Source: Eledone cirrhosa (Eukaryota). From it: a stretch of DNA of 64,000 nt. The notes beneath the pieces are model-generated. The model worked only from the letters and a program-made list of their open reading frames with translations. It was not told the DNA's origin and searched no databases. The stretch spans positions 18,290,001 through 18,354,000 of the forward strand of contig OZ024750.1 of assembly GCA_964016885.1 (NCBI GenBank), read 5' to 3'. Shown here piece by piece: positions 58,347-59,758 of this stretch (positions are counted from its first letter, which is position 1; every line of letters begins with the position of its first letter). The position numbers were made by a program, and so were the translations under genes.

Positions 58347-58522
58347 TATAATAAAATAAAACAAGGACGAGTGGTTACTCCATTACGTTTATTGGTTGGT
58401 GACGTGCGTTTCGCCACTGATCAGCTCAAGGTTCGATCTGTATCGATCTAGCCCGACTCTGTAATCTGTGGCTCGTCAGACCCTTTGTAATGAAGGAGTA
58501 ACCGCTCGTCCTTGTTTTATTT

Positions 58523-58529
<7 letters not shown>
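58347..58529 (-). mobile_element. Non-autonomous hairpin element carrying the hammerhead, with 35-bp inverted termini, next to (TA)n
   Basis: tataataaaataaaacaaggacgagtggttactcc (58347-58381) is the reverse complement of 58495-58529 with one mismatch. A (TA)n tract follows. Confidence 0.75.
58381..58492 (-). ncRNA. Type I hammerhead ribozyme with minimal stem III and extended stem II
   Basis: Minus strand: cattac-aaag-GGT CTGACGA gccac(agatta)...(tgatca)gtggc GAAAC gcac GTC ACC...gtaatg. All core nucleotides are present (CUGANGA at 58479-58473; GAAA and GUC within 58412-58401), and the G10.1-C11.1 pair and stems I and II can form. Confidence 0.8.
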
Positions 58530-58563
<34 letters not shown>

Positions 58564-58685
58564 CATATGTATATATGCATAATATACATATAAATATATA
58601 CATATATATATATATATATATATTCGCTTTAACAGTGGATACGTAAATGCATTCATGAGTTTAATATCGAATGATGATAATATAA

Positions 58686-59096
58686 CAATGGTTTCTTATA
58701 TAGGCACAAGGCCAGCAATTACCCAGTACATTACTGGTACTTCATTTTATTGACCCCCGTAAGGATGGAAGGCGGCACAGTTAACCTCGGCAGAATTTGA
58801 ACTCAGAATGGCAAGGGCCGTAACTATGCATCGAAGCATGGCGTCCGACCCTCTACCGATACTGCCAAATGATAATGGTTTCTTATATAGGAACAAGGCC
58901 AGCAATTTTGGGGGCGGGGAAAGTTGATTAAATCGACCCCAGTGCGTGACTGATACTTTATTTTATTTATCGACCCCGTAAGGATGAAAGGCAAAGTTAA
59001 CCTCGGCGGCATCTAAACTCAGATCATAAAGGGTCGTAACTCTATGCTGCAAAGCATGGCGTCCGACCCTCTACCAATTCTGCCAATCCACTGCCA
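58686..59096 (-). mobile_element. Two tandem SINE family A copies
   Basis: Two consecutive consensus matches (about 58686-58868 and 58875-59096). Confidence 0.8.
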
Positions 59097-59309
59097 ATAT
59101 TATTAAATTTGATTCATTTGCAAGCAAACAGTCTCATAACACCATATGTTGTAGATGCCTAGCATCATCTTTTTGTTCTAGCGATAGCATAGGAAAACTA
59201 ACAATTGTTTCAGGGTTACTGCCCCTTGTCAAGATTGTGTAAATTCCTCTCTTGATTGATTCACGTCTCCCATATCTTTACCAAAAATATATATACATAT
59301 TTATATATA

Positions 59310-59344
<35 letters not shown>

Positions 59345-59349
<5 letters not shown>

Positions 59350-59529
59350 AAAGGACGAAGTGTTAGGTCTTCATTACGTTTATTGAGGTGGGACGCGTGT
59401 TTCACGATTGATCGGCTCAAGGTTTGATCTTTATCAATCTGGTCCGAATCTGGAATCAAAAGCTTGTTGGACTTCTATTATGGTAATGACAGAATGCACC
59501 TTTTAGGGCTTTGAAAGTTACAATCCCTA

Positions 59530-59532
<3 letters not shown>
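59345..59532 (-). mobile_element. Diverged relative of the hammerhead element, core decayed
   Basis: Shares aaggacga...cattacgtttattg...gatcggctcaagg. The minus strand has GAAACacgcGTC (59403-59392), but CUGANGA is replaced by CCAACAA (59470-59464). Flanked by (TA)n and (TAA)n. Confidence 0.7.
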
Positions 59533-59564
<32 letters not shown>

Positions 59565-59568
<4 letters not shown>

Positions 59569-59758
59569 ATAACGAGGAATCAGTGATGCATCAAAACCCA
59601 ATTTATTAAAATATTACATATGTTTCTCTGACGATCAGCTCAAGGCAGGATCTATTATAGATCGAACCAGACTCTGCATTCGCAAGGTCCTCAGGTATGT
59701 TTATCGTTTTCAAGGCATTTCTTCCAACGGACACATTTATTGCAACCTCACAACAACT
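59565..59758 (-). mobile_element. Third, more divergent hammerhead-bearing element
   Basis: Minus strand: CTGAGGA (59694-59688), then the related insert (gagtctggttcgatcta-taa-tagatc...ccttgagctgatc), then GAAACatatGTA (59626-59615). (TA)n on both sides; stems imperfect. Confidence 0.65.

Follow-up and report, generated by a model that had tools for sequence, protein, structure and literature searches.

Three copies of a long-armed hammerhead motif

The window analyzed here is a stretch of 64,000 nucleotides (nt) from Eledone cirrhosa (GenBank assembly GCA_964016885.1, contig OZ024750.1, positions 18,290,001 to 18,354,000), and all positions below count from its first letter. It carries three diverged copies of a short repeat, each built around a hammerhead ribozyme motif with a stem II of 60 or 61 nt. 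We put the probability at about 0.65 that these copies are 5′-truncated 3′ ends of a many-copy Penelope-like element (PLE) family, most likely of the Hydra type, whose hammerhead is predicted to be a slow cutter that acts as a dimer. If so, the known association between PLEs and hammerheads would occur here in an undescribed form, with a long conserved stem II, a common core in which C replaces U at position 4 (U4C), and two stem III palindromes.

All three copies lie on the minus strand. Copy 1 occupies 58347..58529, followed by a long tail at 58245..58346. Its 5′ core word CTGACGA (C3 to A9) spans 58473..58479; position 58478 is U4, a C in part of the family. Stem II (58413..58472, 60 nt) is predicted to consist of a 9-base-pair (bp) base helix with 8 of 9 positions paired, a bulge, a 3-bp helix, a tandem A.G/G.A, and an upper part with the upper helix, an internal loop and an apical GATC/GATC hairpin. 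GAAAC, loop 3 (GCAC) and GTC lie at 58401..58412, and the predicted cut falls after 58401. The 3′ strand of stem I, an AATAAA (58388-58393), a distal helix and a short 3′ end make up 58347..58400. Copy 2 (59334..59533) has a 63-nt leader, the decayed core word CCAACAA (59464-59470), a 60-nt stem II (59404-59463), GAAAC-ACGC-GTC (59392-59403), AATAAA and the short 3′ end. Copy 3 (59565..59758), from a distant subfamily, has a 64-nt leader, CTGAGGA (59688-59694), a 61-nt stem II (59627-59687), GAAAC-ATAT-GTA (59615-59626), AATAAA and its 3′ end. The core words of copies 1, 2 and 3 begin at 58479, 59470 and 59694. Each stem II is followed by GAAAC-N4-GTH, with GAAAC beginning at 58412, 59403 and 59626 and the last base before the cut (H17) at 58401, 59392 and 59615. 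AATAAA starts 8 nt 3′ of the predicted cut in every copy. A (TA)n run without strand (59534..59564) separates copies 2 and 3, and like runs border all three copies. Searches of the window with blastn, nhmmer and a covariance model found no fourth copy.

The original prediction, made from the letters of the window, had described three same-strand motifs within 1.4 kb with core words at equivalent positions, and this description holds. It did not include the 43-nt inverted arm of copy 1, its tail of about 100 nt (58245-58346) or the AATAAA in all copies. Its statement that the flanks differ is only partly right. The leaders of copies 2 and 3 are unrelated to each other although both begin 63-64 nt before the core, and other family copies start at other 5′ positions in public reads. 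Copies 1 and 2, however, have their 3′ tail in common (79% over 125 nt; 9 of 10 positions after AATAAA). Aligned with each other, the three copies, separated by (TA)n, are identical at 56 to 66 of 91 positions.

Three copies within 1.5 kb are improbable under uniform placement (P=0.0016), much less so if landing is restricted to the 50 (TA)n runs of the window (P=0.055); that all point the same way has a probability of 1/4. PLEs also tend to land beside earlier copies (PMC6765202), and copy 3 pairs poorly with the other two copies. Hence, the cluster can be explained without a special function. We rejected the idea that the three copies work together as a dimer-forming cluster, since copy 3 forms only weak cross-duplexes and the clustering is largely accounted for by (TA)n density.

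A refuting outcome for a hammerhead would have been a core no better conserved than its surroundings, and the comparison of copies 1 and 3 came out the other way. All 13 canonical core positions are identical, compared with 7 of 39 neighboring positions (10 upstream, two 6-nt arms of the stem II base, 7 of stem I and 10 downstream; Fisher p=1.2e-7). The upper insert is also well conserved between them, with 17 of 22 and 17 of 20 positions identical (34 of 42 together). The descriptor C[TC]GA.GA-N55-66-GAAAC..GTH, which was derived from these very copies, matches the window twice (copies 1 and 3), whereas local shuffles give a mean of 0.07 matches and none of 200 reaches two. These comparisons support a hammerhead-type core under constraint in this family.

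All 13 positions of a type I hammerhead core (C3-A9, G12-A14, A15.1-U16.1, H17) are present in copies 1 and 3, and the core of copy 2 is decayed. The helices that close the three-way junction are complete in copy 1 alone, with 3 bp of stem I adjoining the core, 8 of 9 pairs at the base of stem II and 2 bp of stem III; copies 2 and 3 fall short. The earlier claim of two intact copies was thus too strong. Copy 3 keeps the core words, yet C.A mismatches take the place of both the 10.1-11.1 and the 2.1-1.1 pair, so that only copy 1 can be called structurally intact; in copy 3, 7 of the first 10 pairs of stem II form, as do 7 of 10 in stem I. Copies 2 and 3 are likely inactive, and all three window copies are probably inert relics.

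The long stem II of copy 1 folds better than most shuffled sequences (−20.1 kcal/mol, z=−2.8, 3 of 200 shuffles equally good). The stem II folds of copies 2 and 3 are no better than shuffles (32 and 18 of 200 as good), and over a 126-nt region copy 3 has z=0.23. When the three copies are aligned, 57 of 66 cells in stem II pair, compared with 25-35% in slid controls. Three of 22 pairs change on both sides (C-G/U-A; C-G/U-A/G-U; U-A/C-G). The covariation score is 0.197 against 0.082 in shuffles, with 3 of 500 shuffles attaining it, for a structure drawn from copy 1 and three sequences in all. The apical GATC/GATC helix, which had been said to be kept, is indeed paired in 12 of 12 cells. As GATC is self-complementary, this amounts to sequence conservation, not covariation. 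Two other readings of the insert were dropped: a tRNA origin, prompted by the word GGTTCGATC, for which ARAGORN found no tRNA, and K-turn or selenocysteine insertion sequence (SECIS) readings of the tandem A.G/G.A, which did not fit the consensus when compared by hand.

Stem III appears to exist in two forms. In the majority of the family loop 3 is GCGC: the change 58405 T>C occurs in 652 of 965 reads of one public sequencing run (X8), 633 of 1232 of a second (X9) and 124 contigs of a third (X1), with 108 and 85 read starts behind it in X8 and X9. Hence, the usual stem III of the family is an 8-nt palindrome. GCAC in copy 1 and ACGC in copy 2 are each one G-to-A change off GCGC, and therefore look like decay after insertion rather than changes tolerated in separate lineages. 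Copy 3 has ACATATGT, a perfect 8-nt palindrome with an AUAU loop, not the near-palindrome initially described. Its 8-mer forms a self-duplex of −7.0 kcal/mol, compared with only −0.4 and −0.7 kcal/mol for cross-duplexes with copies 1 and 2. The suggestion that the palindrome fits dimeric cleavage agrees with PLE hammerheads, for which a palindromic stem III, a G10.1-C11.1 pair and cleavage as dimers have been described (Cervera 2014; PMC4209133).

For the claim that the core differs only at tolerated positions this is less favorable: GCAC and ACGC fit decay, and copy 3 has decayed at two junction pairs. Constraint on the core is borne out; in loop 3, only GCGC versus AUAU looks like a difference between lineages.

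The family in public sequencing reads

We aligned four of ten public sequencing runs, none of the ten recorded as RNA, to 58240-58528 at 80% likeness, using contigs of X1 and reads of X8 and X9 (one organism) and contigs of X7 (another). There were 5172 matching contig records in X1, 1657 reads in X8, 2059 reads in X9 and 5 contigs in X7; these counts are not copy numbers, and restriction-site-associated DNA (RAD) reads sample few loci deeply. The details below come from the best 40 of 124 variants and 24 of 345 loose ends, and from 15 of 21 joints and 13 of 5242 pieces. Further members of the family, on whose existence the prediction hinged, are thus plentiful. The X7 matches, two of them with a CCGACG-like loose end (agreement 0.68), are too thin for a claim about the range of the family. 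The insert pattern had no match in viral contigs. A single metagenome-contig match was discarded as a chance 21-mer inside a GC-rich bacterial open reading frame (ORF), without the core words.

The repeat is a many-copy one with a large U4C subfamily. U4C occurs in 76 of 235 reads (X8), 59 of 247 reads (X9) and 47 contigs (X1). The largest class among the listed loose ends, at 58466 (205 contigs, 301 reads and 358 reads; agreement 0.65-0.76), has a copy-2-type consensus with the core CCGA[C/T]GA and the stem II base of copy 2. CCAACAA of copy 2 is two CpG-type changes away from that core, in a window where CpG observed/expected is 0.30. From this class and these two changes it follows that copy 2 is likely a CpG-decayed U4C copy, not one derived from a CUGA core. 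In stem II the read variants agree with two of the covarying pairs, 3 and 5. Both arms vary in each (unphased), with G>A at 58470 and C>T at 58415 in pair 3 and G>A at 58468 and C>T at 58417 in pair 5, and these variants rank among the best supported of those listed. Among the 40 variants listed there is none at a GAAA or GTC position, which gives no firm count.

One could argue that a motif with so many U4C members no longer cuts. The copies would still be PLE-derived ends, with the fold kept as a platform for protein binding or priming and selection acting on the insert. U4C lowers activity in vitro (PMC3088659), although as a natural viroid variant it is weaker yet viable (Perreault 2011, the same source). 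It is on the insert that read depth and identity are highest, and each of the three copies extends across the cut site. For an anole PLE, insertion in vitro did not depend on cleavage, and no RNA ends were observed at its cut site (PMC11167929). The depth peak is weak evidence, since restriction sites may inflate the RAD depth of the insert. Moreover, the 13 core positions are kept in copies as distant as 1 and 3, and the stem III palindrome switches from GCGC to AUAU, as a cutting dimer needs. We therefore regard a noncutting platform as unlikely.

Ends of the element and its origin

Copy 1 carries at its 5′ side an inverted copy of its own 3′ end, 43 nt long (58487..58529, minus strand). The two arms match over 35 nt at 97% inverted identity, and their fold has z=−11.3. 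The junction lies inside CATTAC, which in copy 2 is native and pairs with a downstream GTAATG. Because the arm is joined within this native helix, we infer that a complementary DNA (cDNA) folded back there. The inverted arm keeps 3 letters that are missing from the 3′ arm and are present in 282 of 320 reads (X8) and 318 of 363 reads (X9). An opposite-strand joint (58388-58486), tried as a fold-back, was rejected as an artifact of those 3 letters missing in the reference arm. At least one other locus apparently has such an arm as well, to judge by the joint 58381-58493, which is found in one contig and in 122 and 145 reads that have 1-2 starts; one listed X1 piece (piece 8) is without it.

Flanked by TA runs and carrying its 35-nt inverted repeat, copy 1 resembles a miniature inverted-repeat transposable element (MITE), that is, a DNA transposon whose ends are terminal inverted repeats and whose TA target is duplicated, in which the hammerhead words would be mere passengers. 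The other locus with apparently the same arm would fit. Yet the arm is missing in copies 2 and 3 and in piece 8, so that only one of three window copies has paired inverted termini, and the data suggest that most genomic copies lack them. Other copies continue 100 nt beyond the right repeat, arm ends vary between loci, and the core is more conserved than its neighbors. We find a MITE highly improbable.

The long tail of copy 1 (58245..58346, minus strand, about 100 nt) ends in (AT)n at 58245 and is repeated in reads. It is bridged to the hammerhead with at least 31 letters on each side in 2 of 8 listed X1 pieces, and five more reach 15-30 letters in. Variants of the tail-hammerhead junction occur in 31-74 contigs, and 27 contigs run from the tail into a copy-2-type tail. 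An end motif, CACT-N0-3-TCCT, has four matches in the window, one at each of the three short ends and one where the tail ends; it was drawn from these ends themselves, so that for them the test is circular. Three details of these ends may be recorded. The tail of copy 1 differs from the read majority by five one-direction C/G swaps (58267, 58273, 58277, 58297, 58300). In its family form the tail contains a 12-nt palindrome, near 58279-58290, as well as a direct repeat of 9 nt. In the leader of copy 2 (59503-59532) there is a short TTTAGGG/CCCTAAA hairpin with a telomere-like word, a single case that may be due to chance.

The size of the copies (185-285 nt), their type I hammerhead and short stem III also fit animal non-LTR retrozymes (LTR, long terminal repeat). 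The copies would then be dispersed monomers, with tandem masters elsewhere giving multimers that the hammerhead cuts into circular RNAs of about 200-300 nt. Dispersed monomers are known for retrozymes, which have been proposed to derive from the pseudo-LTRs (pLTRs) of PLEs (PMC7229834; bioRxiv 10.64898/2026.07.22.740005), and a fixed 5′ end may be what copies 2 and 3 show in both starting 63-64 nt before the core. However, the window holds no tandem repeat, and the copies are only 56-66/91 identical with (TA)n between them. The tail is unlike the leaders, and none of the best 15 of 21 joints is a same-strand back joint. A retrozyme is thus quite unlikely.

Several features instead point to a PLE. 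Described marks of these elements are a 5′-truncated inverted copy at the 5′ end, a tail confined to one end, (TA)n targets and, in Hydra, a hammerhead near the 3′ end (Craig 2021; PMC8557442). Here, a 5′-truncated copy with an adjacent inverted copy is present in the arm of copy 1 and in four other fold-backs in the window, and all three copies have (TA)n flanks as in the Hydra clade. The one-sided tail, which other copies have as well, is a less certain counterpart given its length. AAUAAA directly follows stem I in several of the PLE hammerheads listed (Cervera 2014). Insertion into (TA)n is not diagnostic of the Hydra clade, since Naiads share it and Neptune elements favor microsatellites.

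The fold-backs form families of their own. Between its (TA)n runs the window has 16 segments of 60-450 nt, and five of these are fold-back elements that carry a GAAAC half-core, namely copy 1 and those at 5730-5910, 24174-24403, 24440-24635 and 57549-57726. The element at 24174-24403 (plus strand, TA-flanked) has CCGATAA at 24245, a 38-nt stem II that folds (a helix of about 10 bp), a 9-nt palindromic stem III, a 4-bp stem I, the cut site GTA and a tail hairpin at 24344; hence, the long arm and C4 seem to recur in a second family. Another family has two copies that are 80% alike (57549-57726 and 46374-46581). On the minus strand its 57.6-kb copy has the whole CTGATGA...GAAAC core (57611); stem II spans 12 nt, stem III has 4 bp as in listed Hydra hammerheads, and a tail hairpin lies at 57667 (+). 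A third family (5730-5910, 5940-6060 and 24440-24635; tail hairpins at 5982 (+) and 24518 (−)) has GAAAC and a stem III of 5 bp. Within about 50 nt of its GAAAC there is no recognizable 5′ core word, so its stem II may also be long. One of its copies, at 5730, has a perfect 98-nt inverted repeat, so that its insertion may be recent.

The hairpin behind these elements, [AG]CTC-stem-loop-stem-2 nt-GAG[CT][AG]C[CT] in its strict form, occurs four times in the window (5982, 24344, 24518, 57667), in three cases directly behind a fold-back element. By eye we see it in four of the six new Hydra consensus sequences in print: in the tails of Hydra-2_Amil, Hydra-2_Ajap and Hydra-1_Crog (here with one mismatch) and at the 5′ start of Hydra-1_Ajap, but not in Hydra-1_Amil or Hydra-1_Obim (PMC8557442). 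The tail of copy 1 has a loose form at 58342-58290, which 31 of 20,000 shuffles match, although the feature was found by eye and has no published criterion. The read-majority letters at 58297 and 58300 would, by hand, give it three inner pairs and the 2-nt bulge.

How such ends could arise can be pictured from three published accounts (Cervera 2014; Craig 2021; Frangieh 2024, PMC11167929), on which the steps concerning protein, priming, dimer and cutting are modeled. The last of these describes two internal starts of reverse transcription, a protein-assisted hammerhead and an uncut RNA template. An autonomous PLE protein, with reverse transcriptase (RT) and GIY-YIG nuclease, would nick (TA)n. 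Reverse transcription would start inside the RNA, either directly 3′ of the hammerhead, giving the short end, or about 100 nt beyond, giving the tail end. As all three copies run across the cut site, their templates would have been uncut RNA. Synthesis would stop early, and in copy 1 the cDNA would fold back at the CATTAC/GTAATG helix and copy its own start into the inverted arm. In the source RNA two hammerheads may pair through their 8-nt palindrome (GCGC or AUAU, depending on the subfamily) and cleave behind GUH. A site read by sequence is the likely role of the conserved upper stem II, with the PLE protein as our best guess for the reader. After insertion the copies would decay, mostly through CpG loss.

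A number of observations weigh against this account. First, a Pfam scan of 103 of the 165 window ORFs found no RT or GIY-YIG domain. The insert words have no match in the available part of the supplement of Craig 2021, and the Hydra hammerhead published for octopus differs in sequence and in its short stem II (PMC8557442). Second, the ends do not fit in every detail. The tail measures about 100 nt, compared with 30-40 nt described for PLE tails (Craig 2021), and that of copy 1 fails the strict hairpin form, while the loose form also matches a common repeat resembling short interspersed nuclear elements (SINEs), with 13 matches in all. In neither copy 2 (56 of 1000 shuffles) nor copy 3 (410 of 1000) do leader and tail pair significantly. 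Third, Rfam gives no gathering-level match in the window. Up to E=10 there are 17, mostly to TA-repeat microRNA models, with one to Hammerhead_1 (16.8 bits, E=1.4). The covariation, from so few sequences, is modest evidence, and the lowest-energy fold of copy 1 pairs the core GAC with the GUC cut site. A hammerhead-compatible monomer would cost 6.7 kcal/mol, which is expected given the weak stem III.

Among other elements, a Naiad origin is not favored, as the insert words are absent from that part of the supplement and the 3′ end of Naiad_Obim is unlike ours. A hammerhead-bearing SINE-like element that depends for its movement on an ordinary long interspersed nuclear element (LINE), as described for schistosome repeats, would also be short, many-copy and T/A-rich at its ends, and there are LINE pieces in the window. 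It is very unlikely nonetheless. The repeat lacks a tRNA-like head (ARAGORN finds none), its 3′ ends are unlike those of the LINE pieces, and an inverted arm with a one-sided tail is described for PLEs (PMC8557442).

A bolder version of the PLE reading, which we consider doubtful, is that of a nonautonomous mini-element of the Hydra type, present in many copies, whose hammerhead is gated by protein. The conserved upper part of stem II, about 40 nt, would bind the PLE RT-nuclease and thereby activate a weak, often U4C, core; subfamily palindromes would let only like copies pair and cut; and long-armed hammerheads would be general at PLE ends in this lineage. If true, long-armed hammerheads missed by standard descriptors could explain "hammerhead-less" or "half-core" PLEs.

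The surroundings are AT-rich animal DNA (GC 0.28-0.50), rich in microsatellites and short repeats. A frame of 2224 codons (14593-21267, minus strand) has a low-complexity middle and no Pfam match; its C-terminal 535 amino acids gave one weak lead, to a Ski/Sno/Dachshund domain (score 0.77). Two LINE 3′ pieces, 43415-44200 (−) and 49222-49872 (+), are near-identical (365 nt, 99%), lie 5.6 kb apart in opposite orientation, and one of them carries a PHD-like zinc finger. There are also two tandem arrays, one at 35772-38515 with a 94-nt unit in about 27 copies of ~96% identity, the other at 53681-54250 with a unit of ~57 nt matching part of a dispersed SINE-like repeat.

Comparison with known systems

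In the open literature we found no description of a PLE hammerhead with a 60-nt stem II or of this family; Repbase and subscription journals lay outside this search, so the repeat may be catalogued there. Among the closest known systems are the hammerheads in the pseudo-LTRs of metazoan PLEs (PMC4209133). They are alike in their type I layout, the CUGANGA/GAAA/NUH core and the G10.1-C11.1 pair (present in copy 1). They include minimal variants (min-HHR) and variants with a small palindromic helix III, and they resemble ours in the 2-bp helix III with a palindromic loop and in the short helix I. They also occur as many diverged subfamilies per genome, mostly as single truncated copies. However, their helix II has 4-8 bp and a short loop, compared with 60-61 nt and a conserved upper part here, and our copies have no extra base between A9 and 10.1 and a common U4C subfamily.

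Hydra-clade PLEs, including Hydra-1_Obim of Octopus bimaculoides (PMC8557442), share the (TA)n targets and the hammerhead near the 3′ end. In our own reading of Files S1/S2 their 3′ ends lie at two distances from the hammerhead, about 90-130 or 150-210 nt. Their listed stem II spans are about 10-25 nt and their stems III 3-4 bp, and among those listed none matches the insert.

Long second stems have been printed before. PLE-X1_sMoe of spike moss has a stem II of about 53 nt and PLE-X1_sTam a 29-nt loop, and in eight Naiads, two of them from cephalopods, the half cores of "HHR_half_core" lie 35-50 nt apart (PMC8557442). These are single deviating consensus entries, and the available descriptions mention no conserved insert or covariation. 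Unlike them, the stem II here is longer and common to several subfamilies.

Animal non-LTR retrozymes (Cervera and de la Pena 2020, PMC7229834; Li et al. 2026, bioRxiv 10.64898/2026.07.22.740005) are likewise short and noncoding, with a type I hammerhead, a probable PLE origin and dispersed monomers. They are defined by tandem units and circular RNA, and blastn, nhmmer and the covariance model found no tandem hammerhead units in the window.

Published core searches have used spacers of 7-17 nt, or of 35-50 nt for half cores (PMC8557442). Together with the Rfam miss this means that counts for invertebrate genomes would leave out hammerheads whose arms reach 60 nt. Why PLEs carry hammerheads is not settled: these cut poorly, perhaps for want of the PLE protein, and were dispensable for insertion in vitro (PMC11167929). 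The family described here keeps the full core, adds a conserved domain of 40 nt, tolerates U4C and switches its dimer palindrome. Its natural variants therefore offer a way of testing for binding of stem II by the PLE protein and for control of cleavage through such binding.

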